Virus record (IMG/VR): IMGVR_UViG_3300035703_000022
Coordinates: 64,001-128,000 of that record
Reading direction: 5' to 3' (one strand)
From: a virus
DNA length: 64,000 nucleotides
Made by a program: the position numbers and the translations under genes. This document shows, one piece after another, positions 19,393 to 25,922 of this stretch; the first letter of the stretch is position 1, and the number at the start of each line of letters is the position of its first letter. The notes below the pieces were generated by a model. The model was given only the letters and a program-made list of their open reading frames with translations. It made no database searches and was not told where the DNA came from.

Positions 19393-19610
19393 GATACAAG
19401 AGCTCCTTCAGCTTCAAGATCAGCATAGATATAATCAATCAACATCTCATAGTCATCCAGAGGATCTCCGGAGAAAATTACACCATTAGATTCATAAAAC
19501 TTACGAACTTTTTTAAAGAGTTTTGGATTTTTTACATCCAGATAAGATTCTCCGTTCGCAGCAGACTTCAGAGTTTGAATGTCTTTTTTGAATTTATCAG
19601 TGAGTGACAT
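19389..19610 (-). CDS. hypothetical protein
   Basis: 73 aa, downstream of a promoter. Confidence 0.75.
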   Translation of the reverse strand: MSLTDKFKKDIQTLKSAANGESYLDVKNPKLFKKVRKFYESNGVIFSGDPLDDYEMLIDYIYADLEAEGALVS

Positions 19611-19634
19611 TTGTTTGAATTTGTTTACCTTGTT

Positions 19635-19686
19635 ATTATAGGGGATTGACTTGGAGAAGTCAAGACGGACAGTTCGGTTTCTGTCC
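19635..19686 (-). promoter_or_regulatory. Promoter TTGACT-17-TATAAT with upstream GGACAG/CTGTCC palindrome
   Basis: Read directly from sequence. Confidence 0.7.
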
Positions 19687-19688
19687 TA

Positions 19689-19761
19689 TGCTCCTTGCGT
19701 GGATCGAACACGCCTCAGGCGAATTATGAGTTCGCTGCATTCACCAGATTGCTAAAGGAGC
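19689..19761 (-). tRNA. tRNA-Met or Ile2 (CAT)
   Basis: Cloverleaf; anticodon arm GCGAA-CTCATAA-TTCGC. Confidence 0.88.
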
Positions 19762-19765
19762 AAAG

Positions 19766-19837
19766 TAGGACTGGAGGGAATTGAACCCTCTTCACACCGT
19801 TATAAGCAGTGGGCCTTAACCAATAGGCGACAGTCCC
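19766..19837 (-). tRNA. tRNA-Ile (TAT)
   Basis: Cloverleaf; CACTG-CTTATAA-CGGTG. Confidence 0.9.
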
Positions 19838-19852
19838 GCAAAATACAAGTCA

Positions 19853-19881
19853 ATTATAGAGGACTTGGAACTCTTTGTCAA
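19853..19881 (-). promoter_or_regulatory. Consensus sigma70 promoter for the Ile/Met tRNA pair
   Basis: TTGACA-17-TATAAT. Confidence 0.8.
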
Positions 19882-20051
19882 GAGGCTTCGTTATTTAACT
19901 CTGTGTATATGCGTATAAGTTCGTCATCTGCAGGGATCATAACTGCCGTTTGTCCTTTTTCGTTAATTATACCTATACTCTCTCCATTTTCAACTCTATC
20001 AATCATTTCTTCCCAGCGTTTTTGGAACTCTTGCACTGTGTAGATTTTCAT
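19878..20051 (-). CDS. Phd/YefM antitoxin-like small protein
   Basis: MKIYTVQEFQKRWEEMIDRVENGESIGII..GQTAVMIP pattern; TATAAATA at 20060-20067. Confidence 0.55.
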   Translation of the reverse strand: MKIYTVQEFQKRWEEMIDRVENGESIGIINEKGQTAVMIPADDELIRIYTELNNEAS

Positions 20052-20069
20052 AGTTTTTATATTTATAAA

Positions 20070-20143
20070 TCGGGCATGAGGGATTTGAACCCCCGACATC
20101 CTGCTCCCAAAGCAGGCGCGCTACCAAACTGCGCTAATGCCCG
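20070..20143 (-). tRNA. tRNA-Pro (TGG)
   Basis: Cloverleaf; CCTGC-TTTGGGA-GCAGG. Confidence 0.93.
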
Positions 20144-20163
20144 ATTACTAGTATATAGTAACA

Positions 20164-21122
20164 CTAATGATCCTTTTTGTCAAATGGCTGCCAATGTTGC
20201 CAGTTATACTTGTGAATTGCCCAGATACCCATGATAGGCAAAACAACTAAGAGATATCCAATAATACCTAATGTATAAGGATTTTCAAGTACCCATCGTG
20301 CAAAATGTGTCATCAGTTTCATTGTGGATATGCGTTATGAAGACCCCAGTAAATAAAGGTCGCAATAGAACTAAAAAGTAAAAGTGAAGATATAAGTGTG
20401 TGCATTACATTCCTCCGTTTCTAAATCCGACTATGTAACCGATAATGAGCCCACACATAAAGGAAACAAACATATACAAAATGTGAGAAACAAATTCAAT
20501 AAAAATTAACCAATCAGTCGTCGTCATCGTCTTCATAAGTAGATGGTTCTTCAAAGAGTTCTTCCATTTTTTGATGCAAAACTCTTTCTTGCAGTTCTTT
20601 TAAATCGTCCTCTGTGATCATTTGTCCTTTAAAAGTTCTTCGATTCTTTTACGCATATTTGTACTATCTTGTTTCATATAGTCACGAATAGAATAACCAC
20701 GTTGATTTCTCAGAATGCATGTTCCTTGATAAAACATTGTGGCAGCAAATACTAACAACAACACAATACCAATTATTTCAGGGTAATGTTGAGCCATGGT
20801 AGTACAGGTGGAATAACGCCTATAAGTCTCAACAATCCTTCAGCAAATAAAGCAAGGACAACCCAACCAACGCACATACTAATAATGGAAGCATTCCGAT
20901 TGTGCCTTCGTATAGCAGCATCAATCATCTCCTGAACTTCAGAACGTGTAATAAATTCTTCCTGTTCGTGCATCATTTCTCATCTCCAAGAAATTTTGCT
21001 AAAGGATCTCTCCTTGTTTTTACAATTTCAACTGCTCTTTTATAGAACATATTATCAGTGTTACCAGAGGTTTCAAAAGTTGCCTTGATCTTCACCCAAT
21101 TATCATAGGTACGATCGTCCAT
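20164..21122 (-). other. Run of seven overlapping small ORFs, mostly membrane peptides (20164-20322, 20319-20405, 20405-20527, 20514-20621, 20618-20797, 20773-20976, 20973-21122)
   Basis: Manual translation; ATGA/TAATG coupling; hydrophobic helices. Confidence 0.65.
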
Positions 21123-21236
21123 ACTGCCATTGAATTGTACATAATTATATACTAATCACGGAAGCTCTAAAGGCAACCTTATGTGTTCAACTCGTAACAC
21201 TCATTAAGTAATAATTAAATTTGTAGTAATTTTAAA

Positions 21237-21321
21237 CGGAAAGGAGAGGATTCGAACCTCCGGATGCTTTCACATCGACTGTTTTCAAGACAGTTGCCTT
21301 AAACCACTCGGCCACCTTTCC
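21237..21321 (-). tRNA. tRNA-Ser (TGA)
   Basis: Cloverleaf with long variable arm. Confidence 0.93.
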
Positions 21322-21324
21322 ATA

Positions 21325-21413
21325 CGGAGAATGTTGGATTCGAACCAACGGAGAAGTGTAAACTCCTCAAGAACTTAGCAGGTTCCCGCCTTAAACCACT
21401 CGGCCAATTCTCC
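21325..21413 (-). tRNA. tRNA-Ser (GCT)
   Basis: Cloverleaf with long variable arm. Confidence 0.93.
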
Positions 21414-21664
21414 TATCGGATTTCAAAATCCAGTTTACGAACTTTACGGGCTCGTCTGGACTCTTGGAAAGCAAGTTCAGATGGACTGAATAGACTATCT
21501 TTCTTATTTTCCTTTATTGAGTTTAACATAACAACTTGATTTAGGTCAACAGCAGTGATAGTGTCTCCCTTTACAAGTGTCATATTATCACATCCACAAC
21601 ATACTGATTTTGTTGGATGCGACTCCAACTCGGTGTTACACACCTTACATCTTACTTTTAACAT
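21413..21664 (-). CDS. Small Cys-rich (Zn-ribbon-like) hypothetical protein
   Basis: CKVC...CCGC. Confidence 0.7.
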   Translation of the reverse strand: MLKVRCKVCNTELESHPTKSVCCGCDNMTLVKGDTITAVDLNQVVMLNSIKENKKDSLFSPSELAFQESRRARKVRKLDFEIR

Positions 21665-21680
21665 TGTTCAATACCGTAAA

Positions 21681-22202
21681 TTAATCTTCAGTTGTTTCTT
21701 CTATTTGAATTTCAGGTTCTTCTTGTTCTAGAGTTTCTTCAACTTCTTCTTTTGCGAGTCCTGGAGAGGATTCAAGATAAGATCTTAACATCCAAACAAA
21801 TTTTCCGTGAGACTCATTTAGATCATCTGCAAGATTTGAAGTTGCTCTGGACTTCTGAGCATCTGCTTCCTCAGCAACTTCAGTAAATAAATTACACAGA
21901 TCTTGATTTGATTTTAACAGATCTCTAGCCATTTTATGACAATCTGTTGTACTTTGTCCAGTTTTTACTTTGGAAACTTCTACAATTCTCTCTAAACTAT
22001 TAAGTGGTTTTACATTTAAAAATCTCATGTGTTCGGAGATACGATCAATCTCTTCAAACATGGTTTCATACTGATCACCAAAGAGAGTATGAAGTTGTGG
22101 AAAATCTTCCCCTACTACATTCCAATGATAAGCCCAAGTCTTATGAAATAAGACAAAGAGAGACGCTTGTGCATCACTTAGTAGTTTAAAAAGTTTTTCC
22201 AT
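21681..22202 (-). CDS. dps: Dps family ferritin-like protein
   Basis: HWNVVG.DFPQLH.LF.DQY...IDRISE...HGKFVWML; acidic tail. Confidence 0.9.
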   Translation of the reverse strand: MEKLFKLLSDAQASLFVLFHKTWAYHWNVVGEDFPQLHTLFGDQYETMFEEIDRISEHMRFLNVKPLNSLERIVEVSKVKTGQSTTDCHKMARDLLKSNQDLCNLFTEVAEEADAQKSRATSNLADDLNESHGKFVWMLRSYLESSPGLAKEEVEETLEQEEPEIQIEETTED

Positions 22203-22233
22203 TATACCAAAATACTTTAGAAGTATTTATTAA

Positions 22234-22305
22234 TGGGAAATATCGGATTCGAACCAATGACTTACTGCTTGTAAGGCAGTCACTCTACCGCTGAGTTAAT
22301 CTCCC
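22234..22305 (-). tRNA. tRNA-Val (TAC)
   Basis: Cloverleaf; ACTGC-CTTACAA-GCAGT. Confidence 0.93.
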
Positions 22306-22308
22306 GAG

Positions 22309-22379
22309 AGCGGGTAACCGGATTTGAACCGGTGAGAACAACTTGGAAGGATGTCATGTTACCGCTACATCATACCCGC
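22309..22379 (-). tRNA. tRNA-Gly (TCC)
   Basis: Cloverleaf; loop CTTCCAA. Confidence 0.9.
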
Positions 22380-22419
22380 TTATATACCAATCATAAACTA
22401 TTTAAGTTTGATTGGCAAG

Positions 22420-22502
22420 TGCTCCAGAGAAGATTTGAACTTCCACGCTTTTTAAGGCGGCGGATTCTAAGTCCGCTGTGTCTACCGTTCCACCACTGAA
22501 GC
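22420..22502 (-). tRNA. tRNA-Leu (TAG)
   Basis: Cloverleaf with long variable arm. Confidence 0.92.
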
Positions 22503-22504
22503 TA

Positions 22505-22655
22505 ATGAGTAGTGAGTGCCCACCACTCGCGGAAGACACTCTCCGCAACTAACGGGGGTGATCAAATCCCCGACCTAAGAAAACTTAGGATTTAGTGAGT
22601 CGGATATGATGATCCCGACTCGTATGAAAGACCCGAACATTTCCAGACCTTTCAA
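22505..22655 (-). ncRNA. Multi-hairpin ncRNA between tRNAs, possibly the manA motif
   Basis: Six consecutive hairpins, e.g. GAGTCGG/CCGACTC, CCTAAG/CTTAGG, GCGGA/TCCGC; the family call is from memory. Confidence 0.55.
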
Positions 22656-22728
22656 CTCCCCCACCTGGACTCGAACCAGGAACCCCAGAGTTAACAGCTC
22701 CGTGCTCTGCCAATTGAGCTATAAGGGA
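22656..22728 (-). tRNA. tRNA-Asn (GTT)
   Basis: Cloverleaf; loop CTGTTAA. Confidence 0.92.
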
Positions 22729-22731
22729 ATG

Positions 22732-22806
22732 TGGTGGCGGGGGGAGGAATTGAACCTCCTTCCTGAAGCTTATGAGACTTCTGTGCAACCGTTACACTTC
22801 CCCACG
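22732..22806 (-). tRNA. tRNA-Met (CAT), initiator-like 1:72 mismatch, CCA encoded
   Basis: Cloverleaf; GAAGT-CTCATAA-GCTTC. Confidence 0.85.
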
Positions 22807-22870
22807 ATGATGGATTAAGTGTGATACACCTCATAAGGATGTAACAGGGACTTAACCTCTATCAATGTAT

Positions 22871-22899
22871 ATAGTAACAAACTTTTGTAAGTTTGTCAA
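22871..22899 (-). promoter_or_regulatory. sigma70 promoter starting a new unit after the 15-tRNA array
   Basis: TTGACA-17-TACTAT. Confidence 0.75.
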
Positions 22900-22900
22900 G

Positions 22901-22974
22901 CGTCCTCTGCAAGATTCGAACTTGCGACTTCTTGGTTCGTAGCCAAGCACTCTGGTCCACTGAGTTAAGAGGAC
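22901..22974 (-). tRNA. tRNA-Arg (ACG)
   Basis: Cloverleaf; CTTGG-CTACGAA-CCAAG. Confidence 0.93.
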
Positions 22975-22978
22975 AAGG

Positions 22979-23049
22979 CGAAGGATGAGGGACTTGAACC
23001 CCCACTAACGGTTTTGGAGACCGTCGTGCTACCATTACACCAATCCAAC
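22979..23049 (-). tRNA. tRNA-Trp (CCA)
   Basis: ACGGT-CTCCAAA-ACCGT; two U-U mismatches in the acceptor stem. Confidence 0.82.
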
Positions 23050-23053
23050 AAGG

Positions 23054-23126
23054 TGTCCGTGAGAGGATTCGAACCTCTAACACCTACCCCCTCAAGATAG
23101 TGCCTCTTCCATTGGGCTACACGGAC
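23054..23126 (-). tRNA. tRNA-Leu (GAG), short variable loop
   Basis: CTATC-TTGAGGG-GGTAG; A73. Confidence 0.82.
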
Positions 23127-23129
23127 TGG

Positions 23130-23200
23130 CTGAGAAACTAGGACTCGAACCTAGATAAACTCCTTCAAAGGGAGGTGTCCTACCATTAGACGATTTCTCA
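23130..23200 (-). tRNA. tRNA-Gln (TTG)
   Basis: Cloverleaf; U1-A72, loop CTTTGAA. Confidence 0.9.
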
Positions 23201-23205
23201 ATAGG

Positions 23206-23281
23206 AGTTCAGGGTGGGATTCGAACCCACGGTGATAGAAGTTTTGCAGACTTCTGCATTCGACCACTCTGCCACCTGAAC
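23206..23281 (-). tRNA. tRNA-Cys (GCA)
   Basis: GAAGT-CTGCAAA-ACTTC; U73. Confidence 0.92.
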
Positions 23282-23285
23282 TAAG

Positions 23286-23357
23286 AGCCCTCAGTCGGAT
23301 TTGAACCAACGACCTACTCATTACTAGTGAGTTGCTCTACCTCTGAGCTATAAGGGC
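23286..23357 (-). tRNA. tRNA-Thr (AGT)
   Basis: ACTCA-CTAGTAA-TGAGT. Confidence 0.9.
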
Positions 23358-23359
23358 GG

Positions 23360-23430
23360 GGTGTCGTGAGGGAATCGAACCCTCATATAGAGAACCACAA
23401 TCTCCTGTCTTACCATTAGACTAACGACAC
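23360..23430 (-). tRNA. tRNA-His (GTG)
   Basis: GGAGA-TTGTGGT-TCTCT; C73. Confidence 0.9.
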
Positions 23431-23431
23431 A

Positions 23432-23503
23432 AGGCAGTGGGTAGAATTGAACTACCGACATAGAGGGTATGAATCTCTTGTTCTACCACTGAACTACACT
23501 GCC
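23432..23503 (-). tRNA. tRNA-Met (CAT)
   Basis: Cloverleaf; loop TTCATAC. Confidence 0.88.
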
Positions 23504-23507
23504 AAAG

Positions 23508-23579
23508 TGGAACCGACAAGATTTGAACTTGTGACCGCTCGGTTATCAGCCGAGTGCTCTACCGCTGAGCTACGATTCC
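23508..23579 (-). tRNA. tRNA-Ile (GAT)
   Basis: CTCGG-CTGATAA-CCGAG. Confidence 0.93.
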
Positions 23580-23583
23580 AGAG

Positions 23584-23657
23584 AGGGAACAATCGGATTT
23601 GAACCGATAACACCATGATCTTCAATCATGTGCTCTACCAATTGGAGCTATGTTCCC
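23584..23657 (-). tRNA. tRNA-Phe (GAA)
   Basis: CATGA-TTGAAGA-TCATG. Confidence 0.92.
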
Positions 23658-23660
23658 AAG

Positions 23661-23734
23661 TCCAGATGAAAGGATTTGAACCTCCGACAACTCCGCCCCA
23701 AACGGAGGGCTCTACCAAACTGAGCTACATCTGG
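23661..23734 (-). tRNA. tRNA-Pro (TGG), second divergent copy
   Basis: CTCCG-TTTGGGG-CGGAG. Confidence 0.9.
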
Positions 23735-23735
23735 T

Positions 23736-23810
23736 TGGTATTCCTAACGGGATTCGAACCCGTGCTGCCACCTTGAAAGGGTGGTGACCTAACCGCTAGT
23801 CGATAGGAAC
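23736..23810 (-). tRNA. tRNA-Glu (TTC), CCA encoded
   Basis: CCACC-CTTTCAA-GGTGG. Confidence 0.93.
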
Positions 23811-23815
23811 TTGAT

Positions 23816-24007
23816 GGGAGGGGTATCCCACACGAAGTCACTTATGGATTACGCTTCGTAGCCTTATGAATCCTGCCATCATCCGATGGTGGTTAGAAAT
23901 CCCTCCCCAATTCCAGTTCTTGCTACGTCATTCCTTACCTAACTGGCAACATTCAGGATGACGTGCTACAACCGCCAAGGAGGGACACTCCATCAGCAGC
24001 GTAGCAA
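23816..24007 (-). ncRNA. Two unassigned structured RNAs inside the tRNA array
   Basis: Closing stems TTGCTACG/CGTAGCAA (23920-24007) and GGGAGGG/CCCTCCC (23816-23908) with internal hairpins. Confidence 0.5.
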
Positions 24008-24081
24008 CGACCCATACGGGATTCGAACCCGTGATCTCCACCGTGACAGGGTGGCGTGATAATCCTCTACACTAATGGGTC
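24008..24081 (-). tRNA. tRNA-Asp (GTC)
   Basis: CCACC-CTGTCAC-GGTGG. Confidence 0.93.
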
Positions 24082-24085
24082 AAGG

Positions 24086-24167
24086 TGGGAGGAACAGGAT
24101 TTGAACCTGTGAAGGCAGAGCCGTCTGATTTACAGTCAGATTCCTTTAACCACTCGGAAATCCTCCC
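24086..24167 (-). tRNA. tRNA-Tyr (GTA)
   Basis: TCTGA-CTGTAAA-TCAGA; long variable arm. Confidence 0.93.
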
Positions 24168-24171
24168 ACGA

Positions 24172-24243
24172 TGGGACATCTCGGATTCGAACCGAGGACT
24201 AACCGGTTAAAAGCCGGATACTCTACCGCTGAGTTAATGTCCC
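24172..24243 (-). tRNA. tRNA-Lys (TTT)
   Basis: Cloverleaf; loop CTTTTAA. Confidence 0.92.
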
Positions 24244-24254
24244 AAAGAATTAAA

Positions 24255-24289
24255 TTTTCAAGGTTCGGAGTGTGGTCTCTCTCGACCAC
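24255..24289 (-). promoter_or_regulatory. boxB hairpin + boxA (rrn-type antitermination signal)
   Basis: GTGGTC-GAGAGA-GACCAC followed by GAACCTTGAAAA. Confidence 0.65.
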
Positions 24290-24359
24290 TTGGCTAGAAT
24301 ACCACCGTTTGATCTCTGGAGGGAGGTTGGTGGACACTTAGAAAACTGTCACAGACAAC

Positions 24360-24396
24360 AAAAAAGGGGAGGAAACTTTTTGGTTTCTCTCCCCTT
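24360..24396 (-). terminator. Intrinsic terminator (attenuator 3:4 stem)
   Basis: AAGGGGAGAGAAAC-CAAAAA-GTTTCCTCCCCTTTTTT. Confidence 0.85.
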
Positions 24397-24421
24397 CTTT
24401 TGCTTTTATGAATTAAACATC

Positions 24422-24520
24422 TTACATATGTCTATCCATATCCGCAAACAGGGGAGTACCCTCAATATGCCAATAGCGGCAATCGAGAATAGTAAACTGT
24501 TTGGGCATTGGATAAGACAT
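24422..24520 (-). CDS. Putative leader peptide of the tRNA array (32 aa, MSYPMPKQFTILDCRYWHIEGTPLFADMDRHM)
   Basis: Manual translation; AGG SD-like site; between a promoter and a terminator. Confidence 0.75.
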   Translation of the reverse strand: MSYPMPKQFTILDCRYWHIEGTPLFADMDRHM

Positions 24521-24541
24521 TGTTTTCGACCTAAGTGTTTT

Positions 24542-24572
24542 TATTTATAAGACTTTTTTGTTTAAAAGTCAA
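24542..24572 (-). promoter_or_regulatory. Composite promoter TTGACT-17-TATAAA overlapping a T4 late TATAAATA
   Basis: Read directly from sequence. Confidence 0.75.
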
Positions 24573-24645
24573 CAGGCACGGCTGGACTCGAACCAGCAAT
24601 CGGCAGCTTAGAAGGCTGATGCATTATCCATTATGCTACGTGCCC
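24573..24645 (-). tRNA. tRNA-Arg (TCT)
   Basis: Loop CTTCTAA; own TTGACA-17-TATGAT promoter. Confidence 0.9.
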
Positions 24646-24682
24646 ACAAGACAATCATACCATTAAAAGGTCGGATTGTCAA

Positions 24683-24769
24683 CGGAGAAAGAGGGATTCG
24701 AACCCTCGGTGAAGTTACCCCCACACAGACTTTCCAGGTCTGCTCCTTAAACCACTCGGACACCTCTCC
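24683..24769 (-). tRNA. tRNA-Ser (GGA)
   Basis: CAGAC-CTGGAAA-GTCTG; long arm; own TTGACA-17-TATAGT promoter. Confidence 0.93.
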
Positions 24770-24829
24770 ATATTTAGACTATAGAATGGGGGAGGAATAT
24801 TGTCAACCCCTCCCTCCTATTCTATTGTA

Positions 24830-25495
24830 TCAAACTTCTACCGTGATCAGTCGGTTAGCATATTCATGAGCATATGATGTACGGGCACCATGAATGCCCC
24901 AACCAATCCAACTATACGCATAGTTCATGTAACGGTCGATAGACTTACCAGGAGTTTTCATCCTATCTTCGATACGTTTCCATTGAACTTCAGTTGTTAG
25001 ATAACGAAGTTGCGTTGGAAGTGTTGATGGAGAACCACCAAACTTCTTAGCAAATTCACCCAATCCATAATAACGATCGGCAGATGTCCATTGGATCAGA
25101 CCATAACCACGTCCGCAGTGATGGTACTGAGTCCTACTACCACCTTCACAAATATTAGGCACGAACATAGATTCCTGCTTAATATTGCCCAGGATAGTAG
25201 CAAGGGCGTTTCTGTCTTTAATACCACGATCCTGGAAATAATCCAAGGTAGCATTCTCATATTCATTACACCCTTTACAAATAAGCCTTTTCTCTTTTGG
25301 CTTTGGTAGTGCAACCTCGCGGATTGCTGTCTTCTGATCATTAACAAGATCAAATTCCTTAATAACGGAAAAGGGCGCTTGTCCTGAAACAGGAGGTGGC
25401 GGCCCTTGCATCTTGTAATTCTGGAATGGCAGTGATGCCGTATTGGTTGTAACCATCGCTACAAGAGGAACGGCTACAGTAAAGAAGTTTAGCAT
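24830..25495 (-). CDS. Phage tail lysozyme-like protein with hydrophobic N-terminus
   Basis: ALATILGNIKQES...GYGLIQWT; start set at MLNFF. Confidence 0.75.
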   Translation of the reverse strand: MLNFFTVAVPLVAMVTTNTASLPFQNYKMQGPPPPVSGQAPFSVIKEFDLVNDQKTAIREVALPKPKEKRLICKGCNEYENATLDYFQDRGIKDRNALATILGNIKQESMFVPNICEGGSRTQYHHCGRGYGLIQWTSADRYYGLGEFAKKFGGSPSTLPTQLRYLTTEVQWKRIEDRMKTPGKSIDRYMNYAYSWIGWGIHGARTSYAHEYANRLITVEV

Positions 25496-25922
25496 TAAAT
25501 TTAATTGAACTCTACATCCGTATAGAAAGGGGGTACACCCTTTTCTCAAAGGGCACTTTCCACGGCTCTAAATGTCACCTCAAAATCTCATTATAAGAAA
25601 ACCCACATAAGTGGGCTTTTTTCATTATAAGTTTTTATTTAGGTTTTGTCAATTATTCGGTCAACATGGCTTCACGAAACTCCTCATAAACCGCACAGGC
25701 ATTAAGATAATCACCCATCTCTGCGAGATAATGAAGGCGATCAATAATACTATCTTTGAGGTTTTCAGCTTGATCAATCATTTGATGTTCCATGAAAGTA
25801 ATCCTTCCTGTAGTGACGACCGAGTACTTTTTTATTCTAGTATCTGGGTTTCAAAATGTCAAGTGTTACATTTTAAAACCAACATTCATAAATAACTGTG
25901 GTCATTAAATACCAAAAGAACA

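Follow-up and report, generated by a model that had tools for sequence, protein, structure and literature searches.

Can a short open reading frame (ORF) report on the tRNA supply of a virus and so govern the tRNA genes that lie behind it? This question is raised by a locus on the minus strand of the 64,000-nucleotide (nt) stretch of viral DNA analysed here, which we refer to as the window and number from its first letter. The window belongs to a 138.5-kb IMG/VR virus record (IMGVR_UViG_3300035703_000022) that is ~67% complete, and among cultured phages it is closest to Synechococcus phage S-PM2 (~80% identity over the tRNAs). An earlier note, made from the sequence alone, had described at this locus a promoter, an ORF of 32 amino acids, an intrinsic terminator, an array of 15 tRNA genes and a further promoter, and had read the ensemble as a leader-peptide attenuator. 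We found all of these parts on the minus strand, and the element is present as a single copy. In our assessment the array is probably headed by a ribosome-dependent leader-peptide attenuator that reports on tRNA supply; we would put the probability of this reading at about 0.6.

The tRNA genes, called with ARAGORN and the Rfam tRNA model, follow one another in the order K(ttt), Y(gta), D(gtc), E(ttc), P(tgg), F(gaa), I(gat), M(cat), H(gtg), T(agt), C(gca), Q(ttg), L(gag), W(cca) and R(acg). Codons 5-20 of the leader ORF (M P K Q F T I L D C R Y W H I E) specify 15 amino acids, which coincide exactly with the set represented in the array, as the earlier note had claimed. Its further statements on codon usage were borne out as well: all of codons 5-20 can be read by array anticodons under standard wobble or I34 rules, and neither Asn nor Val is found anywhere in the whole ORF. 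The reading of CCC by a UGG anticodon requires a modified U34. Even untrimmed, the leader is exceptional in the breadth of its amino acids. Among segments of 20 residues drawn from the long ORFs of the window itself, none of 15,435 contains all 15 array amino acids and only 11 reach 17 distinct residues; at the length of the whole ORF, 7 of 14,984 segments contain all 15. The runs or tandems of codons that mark an attenuator leader were not found in this ORF, in which codons 2-21 specify 17 different amino acids and only Tyr, Pro and Ile appear twice. The tie between the leader and the tRNA genes is one of breadth, not of repetition.

Relatives of the locus were collected by five pattern scans of IMG/VR, together with the cultured phages S-PM2 and S-CREM1. 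The earlier note had made its proposal depend on conservation of the ORF, and a homologous ORF that preserves the frame was found in 158 loci (S-PM2, S-CREM1 and IMG/VR contigs). Of these loci, 107 extend to tRNA-Arg(acg), which we took as the array end; 86 of the 107 are unique in DNA, and the 84 with at least 70 nt of upstream sequence were analysed, their arrays being called with ARAGORN alone. Alignment A1 comprises 101 of 103 unique leader regions, without locus L011, in which the frame is lost past the core, and L100, which has a 9-nt insertion. Both cultured phages have this arrangement at the corresponding position, with an ORF of 34 codons in S-PM2 and of 32 codons in S-CREM1, followed by a terminator and then by tRNA-Lys; the S-CREM1 record lists the ORF as a hypothetical protein, and in S-PM2 it is unannotated. 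In the S-PM2 record (LN828717; L001), a 118-codon coding sequence, S-PM2d160 (2442-2798), is placed on the strand opposite tRNA-Arg and the leader; this is probably a mis-annotation.

The reading frame of the leader has been preserved. In alignment A1, 7 of the 9 distinct gap runs within the ORF columns are divisible by three, versus 3 of 29 outside them, and the two runs in the ORF that are not multiples of three are located at or past early stops. The C-terminal two-thirds of the ORF are nearly invariant in nucleotides, and the N-terminal third is free both in amino acids and at synonymous sites. As the frame is selected but the N-terminus of the peptide is not, the ORF appears to be regulatory and not to encode a functional protein; this suggests that the act of translation, rather than the peptide, is what matters. 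The -35 element, the spacer and the CTTATAAATA block likewise recur 5' of the ORF in relatives with differing upstream neighbours. This recurrence is partly forced by the search pattern, and loci collected by the core pattern show the promoter too. The leader promoter was absent from the list of a consensus promoter scan because its final -10 base is A, and the terminator, a bulged stem of 11 bp with a 6-nt loop, was overlooked by the consensus scan because of its bulge. In a subgroup of relatives (L180-L182, L186 and L188) the Shine-Dalgarno block AGGTCGAA is lost, with TCATCA, TTGTTA and similar sequences in its place, and in L187 it is degraded to AGATTA; in all of these loci the promoter and every helix are retained, as is the ORF with its frame.

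Searches of general collections returned little. With the leader region as query, blastn (distant mode) matched only three S-PM2 records among 50,697 phage records, the remaining 24 matches being short, with E values of 1-4, and tblastn with the leader peptide gave the same three S-PM2 records only (E 0.6). The peptide matched none of the PHROGs families, and a cmscan of 22800-24800 against Rfam (E up to 1) yielded tRNAs and weak chance matches only, with nothing in the leader. A scan for the Asp-Tyr-Arg type of core found 71 stretches, 68 of them new; in none of the 68 was a leader ORF followed by tRNAs.

The alternative RNA pairings named by the earlier note (1:2, 2:3 and 3:4) are present in the window, where the whole ORF is predicted to fold as one long hairpin, P1-P2-P3, with a minimum free energy (MFE) of -44.0 kcal/mol. 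Helices P1, P2 and the antiterminator were named by hand and scored on alignment A1. P1 is paired in 79% of cells, with double changes at 4 of its 11 pairs, and P2 in 94.2%, with a double change from AU to GC in 10 sequences. The P3 core is paired in 98.5% of cells and has double changes from TGCC:GGCA to TACC:GGTA and, by eye, to TATC:GATA; the former is found in S-CREM1-type leaders and the latter in two others, so altering the amino acids while the pairs are kept. The 2:3 and 3:4 stems, whose covariation had been put forward as a check on the proposal, are both maintained with compensatory double changes among relatives. The two parts of the antiterminator (2:3), CTCCCCT-AGGGGAG and TTTGC-GCAAA, are paired in 94.6% and 91.8% of cells, respectively, with a change from UA to CG in 8 sequences and a CG, UG, UA series in the lower helix; the terminator (3:4) is paired in 96.4%, and 7 of its 11 pairs show double changes. 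When the partners of P1, P2, P3 and the terminator were slid by 1-3 columns as a control, 32-48% of cells were paired; over all slid controls, those of the antiterminator included, the range was 32-65%. The CUCCC run of region 2 lies in an internal loop of the P1-P3 fold, yet it is at least 90% conserved, and in S-PM2-like lineages the C-rich run changes jointly with both arms of the terminator. For a transcript that ends at region 3, the antiterminator fold is calculated at -42.5 kcal/mol versus the -44.0 kcal/mol of the P1-P3 fold; under a simple model of the ribosome footprint, a ribosome at codons 1-18 is predicted to leave the 2:3 pairing in place, and one at codons 20-28 to abolish it.

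From this anatomy we infer that the ORF is translated and that stalling modulates termination, in the following way. The leader promoter would yield a short RNA in which the 32-codon ORF sits within the P1-P2-P3 hairpin. If the ORF were untranslated, or quickly read to its stop codon, region 2 would be engaged with region 1 or hidden under the ribosome; with region 2 unavailable, the terminator would form and the RNA would end at 24360. A ribosome lingering in codons 2 to ~19 would leave region 2 free to pair with region 3, and the resulting antiterminator would let RNA polymerase pass the boxB and boxA elements described below into the 15 tRNA genes. The sensor has mostly single codons for many amino acids, with a preference for those that have tRNAs downstream, and slow decoding by any sensed tRNA would raise transcription of the array. 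The phage's own tRNA supply would thus be the physiological signal in a feedback that operates atop a basal internal promoter. A more specific version, which is conceivable but which we put forward only tentatively, is that of a polyvalent, self-referential sensor with approximately one codon to test each tRNA species encoded behind it. Any shortfall, be it in the first phase of infection, because the codons of phage and GC-rich host are mismatched, or because host defences have cleaved tRNAs, would stall the ribosome, open the terminator and boost the whole set, and selection would re-tune the codons as tRNAs come and go.

If the leader senses the array tRNAs, its codons may be expected to follow array content. 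Across the 84 unique loci, sensor codons 2 to ~21 include 919 of 979 array amino acids versus 421 of 701 non-array amino acids, and the post-sensor codons include 472 of 979 and 307 of 701, respectively; the sensor covers all array amino acids in 53 of the 84 loci. Because the loci share ancestry, we compared phylogenetically independent pairs on two trees: a flank tree (84 rows), built on the flanks of the leader with the sensor excluded, and a tRNA tree, built on seven concatenated shared tRNAs (80 rows, without four loci having <300 nt of shared tRNAs). Where one member of a pair has a tRNA species that the other lacks, the sensor codon for that amino acid changes in the same versus the opposite direction 20.5 versus 5.2 times on the flank tree and 25.1 versus 4.3 times on the tRNA tree, and is unchanged 93.3 and 80.7 times, respectively. 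The same comparison gives 18.0 versus 6.8 (flank tree) and 21.0 versus 9.7 (tRNA tree) for the N-terminal codons, and 4.2 versus 0.7 and 7.8 versus 1.1 for the core codons. In the post-sensor codons there is no signal of co-variation on either tree (4.2 versus 5.7 and 7.2 versus 7.4). As a control for haplotype structure, amino-acid labels were deranged (7,390 derangements), with same minus opposite as the statistic. On the flank tree the matched sum is 15.3 versus 3.3 +/- 3.4 for deranged labels (3 of 7,390 reach 15.3), and on the tRNA tree it is 20.8 versus 2.5 +/- 3.8 (none of 7,390 reaches 20.8). With Pro excluded, the label test remains significant on both trees (P = 0.018 on the flank tree and P = 0.00035 on the tRNA tree).

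Individual amino acids illustrate the association. Presence of a Pro codon correlates with presence of tRNA-Pro (r = 0.79, r2 = 0.63, versus 0.40 for the best of 1,617 other alleles), and Ser AGY codons correlate with tRNA-Ser(gct) (r = 0.57, r2 = 0.33, equalled or beaten by 1 of 1,491 alleles). A leader in which Ala replaces the core Tyr precedes one of the few arrays that hold tRNA-Ala. The leader of L038 has lost its Cys, Trp and His core codons together with the internal Met codon, and that of L033 its Cys, Trp and His core codons; the arrays behind these two leaders are without tRNA-Met, tRNA-His and tRNA-Trp. The features of the locus are collected in Table 1.

Table 1. Features of the leader and tRNA array, in window numbering
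Feature	Position	Strand	Remarks
tRNA-Arg(tct)	24646-24572	minus	ends where the leader promoter begins
Leader promoter	24572-24544	minus	-35 TTGACT 24572-24567; 17-nt spacer; -10 TATAAA 24549-24544
Shine-Dalgarno-like AGGT	24532-24529	minus	8 nt 5' of ATG, within conserved AGGTCGAA
Leader ORF	24520-24422	minus	32 codons and TAA; reads MSYPMPKQFTILDCRYWHIEGTPLFADMDRHM
Sensor codons 2-21	24517-24458	minus	a ribosome stalled here is predicted to free region 2
P1 5' arm ATGTC-T-TATCCA	24520-24509	minus	pairs with 24438-24428; predicted to bury the start codon
P1 3' arm TGGATA-GACAT	24438-24428	minus	ORF end; in MFE fold
Region 1 (P2 5' arm) CAAACAG	24503-24497	minus	pairs with CTGTTTG 24451-24445
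P3 apex hairpin	24491-24457	minus	14 bp in the window, core TGCC/GGCA, codons Ile11-Gly21; in MFE fold
Region 2 CTCCCCT-G-TTTGC	24456-24444	minus	partner is region 1 (via CTGTTTG) or region 3
Region 3 GCAAA...AGGGGAG	24403-24389	minus	antiterminator partner and terminator 5' arm
Intrinsic terminator	24394-24360	minus	GGGGAG-A-GAAAC, loop CAAAAA, GTTTC-CTCCCC, T6
Spacer, terminator to tRNA-Lys		minus	115 nt
Internal extended -10 promoter TGGTATTCT	24304-24296	minus	conserved in relatives
boxB-like hairpin	24289-24272	minus	~7 nt 3' of the extended -10
boxA 12-mer GAACCTTGAAAA	24266-24255	minus	10 nt 5' of tRNA-Lys; variants conserved in relatives
Array of 15 tRNA genes	24244-22900	minus	ARAGORN, Rfam tRNA model
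Next promoter, TTGACA	starts 22899	minus	just past the array end

The earlier note had cautioned that an internal promoter might lie near 24290, and this caution was well placed, as a conserved extended -10 element and a boxB/boxA pair are found 3' of the terminator. The post-terminator spacer is highly conserved in relatives, and in 82 of the 97 anchored unique spacers T-A-n-n-n-T is preserved along with the upstream TG, the middle of the -10 element being variable (TATTCT, TATATT, TACATT, TATTTT, TATCTT, TATTGT). The site overlaps a small hairpin in which one compensatory change can be seen by eye. Shortly 3' of the promoter-like TGGTATTCT there follow a hairpin and a boxA consensus, as in rrn leaders. 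An identical 12-mer to GAACCTTGAAAA is given as the boxA in the 16S-23S spacers of cyanobacteria (10.1101/2021.01.08.426015). Very probably, then, the array has its own internal promoter with an rrn-like antitermination leader, on which Nus factors would putatively act. As to expression, a 230-nt lake-metatranscriptome contig of a relative spans 24270-24451, across the terminator and the internal promoter, and might derive from DNA in the library. For phage S-PM2d, differential expression of small ORFs in a tRNA operon is described in an RNA-seq study (PMC10976474); we set these ORFs aside as evidence on the leader, as they lie at ~155 kb, in another tRNA cluster. Near-consensus TTGACA-17-TATAAT sites number 26 on the minus strand of 19600-25900, versus 15.3 +/- 3.1 in shuffled sequences; the tRNA region is therefore dense in promoters, and its tRNAs would be divided among several short transcription units.

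A number of findings weigh against an attenuator that senses the array tRNAs. Since a promoter lies 3' of the terminator, attenuation would govern only part of array transcription, read-through from the leader promoter being at most a supplement, and the leader may for the same reason be a separate small transcription unit. In folds of the full-length leader at equilibrium the terminator always forms, even with a ribosome mask, and any switch must therefore be kinetic; we regarded these full-length folds as uninformative on the point, and the ribosome-occluded folding that the earlier note had suggested as a check was based on the transcript ending at region 3. RNAalifold alone, run on alignment A1, predicted P3 and the terminator and none of P1, P2 and the antiterminator, P3 being the sole leader helix in this unaided prediction. 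The Cys, Trp and His codons are fixed because they form the P3 stem TGCC/GGCA, and part of the amino-acid diversity of the leader may be a by-product of RNA structure, P3 constraining the core DCRYWHIEG.

The codon evidence has its own weaknesses. A single codon per amino acid makes a weak sensor relative to the classical codon runs, and the limits of segment 5-20 were chosen post hoc, with Ser at codon 2, Gly at codon 21 and Ala at codon 26. As a faithful mirror of the array the leader fails among relatives: an exact contiguous match of the two sets was found in 4 of 84 loci, which are the window, L038 and two arrays for which the match is trivial (Arg alone), and the exact match is largely peculiar to this genome. 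The expectation that leader composition tracks gain and loss of tRNAs held in part, the association being significant, amino-acid-specific and confined to codons upstream of region 2, but ~80% of independent tRNA gains and losses occurred without a change in the leader. Correlations between codon and tRNA for Thr, Met, Tyr, Cys and Trp lie between -0.03 and 0.15, and the Cys and Trp codons are near-constant regardless of tRNA presence. Phe at codon 3 is negatively associated with tRNA-Phe (r -0.48), on account of which a second Phe association (KQF vs KQI), striking by eye, was downgraded. Sensor Asn codons occur in 52 and Gly codons in 74 of the 84 loci, and their cognate tRNAs are almost never in the arrays. 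Arrays reduced to K-Y-W-R, K-R or R still have a full leader. Finally, the trees rest on ~370-550 columns of recombining, mosaic DNA, and same-pair cells for different amino acids are not wholly independent.

These points have to be set against what other explanations would predict. The leader could be a stand-alone small gene that produces a ~175-nt RNA, acting as a peptide or as a structured small RNA; the array would then be transcribed from the internal promoter, the terminator would also shield it from upstream transcription, and the match between codons and tRNAs would result from coincidence and ancestry. A unit flanked by its own strong promoter and a strong terminator, with the conserved extended -10 promoter directly after it, would have this appearance, and so would a leader that is unaltered before arrays cut to 1-4 tRNAs and an ORF core conserved as a hairpin at the nucleotide level; the Phe associations, positive for KQF and negative for codon 3, resemble haplotype structure. 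We nevertheless consider a stand-alone gene unlikely. The N-terminal part of the peptide is not conserved, which makes a functional peptide unlikely, and a pure small RNA has no need either of frame-preserving indels or of compensated complementarity between region 2 and the terminator 5' arm. Nor can haplotype linkage account for the excess of matched over deranged labels, or for a signal that is restricted to the sensor.

It seems to us somewhat less likely still that the element is a true attenuator which senses general translation status (ribosome availability, coupling or global slowing) instead of the array tRNAs, its codons being dictated mainly by helix formation in the RNA and by the codon usage of the phage. 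Such a device would fit a leader with one codon per amino acid rather than runs, and it would accommodate the core Cys, Trp, His and Tyr codons, which lie within P3 and are fixed whatever the array contains, the frequent Asn and Gly codons without cognate array tRNAs, and the majority of tRNA gains and losses that leave the leader as it was. It does not readily account for amino-acid-specific co-variation that is significant on two trees, also without Pro, and that is seen in the core codons alone, or for the position of Pro and Ser AGY codon presence as outliers among linked polymorphisms. An element for RNA processing or stability, whose hairpin would be a nuclease entry site (of RNase III or RNase E type) for tRNA maturation and whose ORF would be incidental, is in our view very improbable: it would fit a long, near-continuous hairpin (-44 kcal/mol) between tRNA genes and a tRNA-Arg(tct) that ends where the leader promoter starts, but it leaves unexplained the frame-preserving indels, the conserved start and stop codons and the Shine-Dalgarno-like site, as well as the antiterminator complementarity and the codon-tRNA co-variation.

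Ribosome-mediated attenuators are familiar from the enterobacterial trp, his, leu and pheA leaders and from the multivalent thr and ilvGMEDA leaders. Like attenuators of the trp/his/leu type, the locus has a short ORF with a start codon and a Shine-Dalgarno-like ribosome-binding site, which we take to be translated, mutually exclusive 1:2, 2:3 and 3:4 helices, and codons so placed that a stalled ribosome would be predicted to free region 2; the intrinsic terminator would be the default outcome, here judging by the sequence. It differs from the enterobacterial attenuators in that the genes controlled would be viral tRNA genes and not biosynthetic enzymes, that mostly single codons for ~15-17 amino acids are used versus runs of one to three there, and that the whole ORF lies within a hairpin predicted to bury the start codon, with a second promoter past the terminator. 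A precedent for attenuation ahead of a tRNA gene may be that of the E. coli tRNA-Phe genes pheU/pheV, which reportedly, in accounts of the 1980s, have tandem promoters, a Phe-rich leader and a terminator. That case would differ in involving one tRNA, one amino acid and a cellular gene. T-box riboswitches bind uncharged tRNA directly, without translation, respond to one tRNA and control aminoacyl-tRNA synthetase or amino-acid genes. The locus resembles them in its competing terminator and antiterminator helices, which are proposed here to answer tRNA charging or supply; it is unlike them in that the leader would work through translation and on many tRNAs, and it has no Rfam match. The cmscan of 22800-24800 gave no sign of a T-box (specifier loop, T-box sequence, Rfam model) at this locus. 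The hairpin and GAACCTTGAAAA, lying 3' of a promoter and 5' of a long structured untranslated RNA, resemble the boxB-boxA leaders of rrn operons, but the setting is a phage, tRNAs take the place of rRNA, and the pair is a neighbour of the attenuator and not a part of it. For pheA, the antiterminator is favoured when the ribosome stalls in the leader ORF ahead of region 2 (PMC3082878). Our literature search brought up no account of any leader ORF or attenuator in front of the tRNA genes of cyanophages, and the pheU/pheV reports did not come up in it either. The element is a probable new version of ribosome-mediated attenuation that would control viral tRNA genes.

Other observations concern the tRNA region itself. 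The spacer between tRNA-Asp and tRNA-Glu is 196 nt long in the window (23811-24006, minus strand) and has no Rfam match; relatives have 0 to 232 nt at this point, and part of the spacer is represented among RNA-library contigs. In 11 of the 84 arrays tRNA-Arg(gcg) replaces tRNA-Tyr(gta), giving K-R-D versus K-Y-D (for example L017, L077, L079, L113 and L143), and in further arrays tRNA-Lys and tRNA-Asp are separated by 94-208 nt in which no tRNA was detected. In L009, L021, L059, L079 and L172, ARAGORN reports a tRNA-like gene with a two-letter anticodon (gc) ~214 nt after tRNA-Ile, which could be a degenerate or unusual tRNA. The tRNA-Thr of the window (23285-23357, minus strand) has the anticodon AGT (A34), and some relatives have GGT at the same place. 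A motif, CTGTTACATCCTT..GAGGTGTAT, follows the 22899 promoter in the window (22800-22899) and is also found 5' of the leader promoter in the S-PM2-like L073, L080 and L115; perhaps it represents a mobile hairpin element that belongs to such tRNA regions.

The tRNA genes of phages have long been discussed as compensation for codon usage, and to our knowledge hardly anything has been described of how their expression is controlled. More recently, phage tRNAs have also been proposed to replace tRNAs destroyed by host defences (PMC10264068). If the favoured reading is correct, a feedback device that measures decoding itself stands ahead of the tRNA array, and its leader peptide would poll many tRNAs at once in order to control tRNA genes rather than enzymes. 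The comparative signal gives a rare view of the codon content of a leader evolving alongside the genes that it would regulate, and the annotation of the cultured phages is corrected for the ORF missed in S-PM2 and listed as hypothetical in S-CREM1. As the element is present in the cultured pair of S-PM2 and Synechococcus WH7803, the idea is directly testable.

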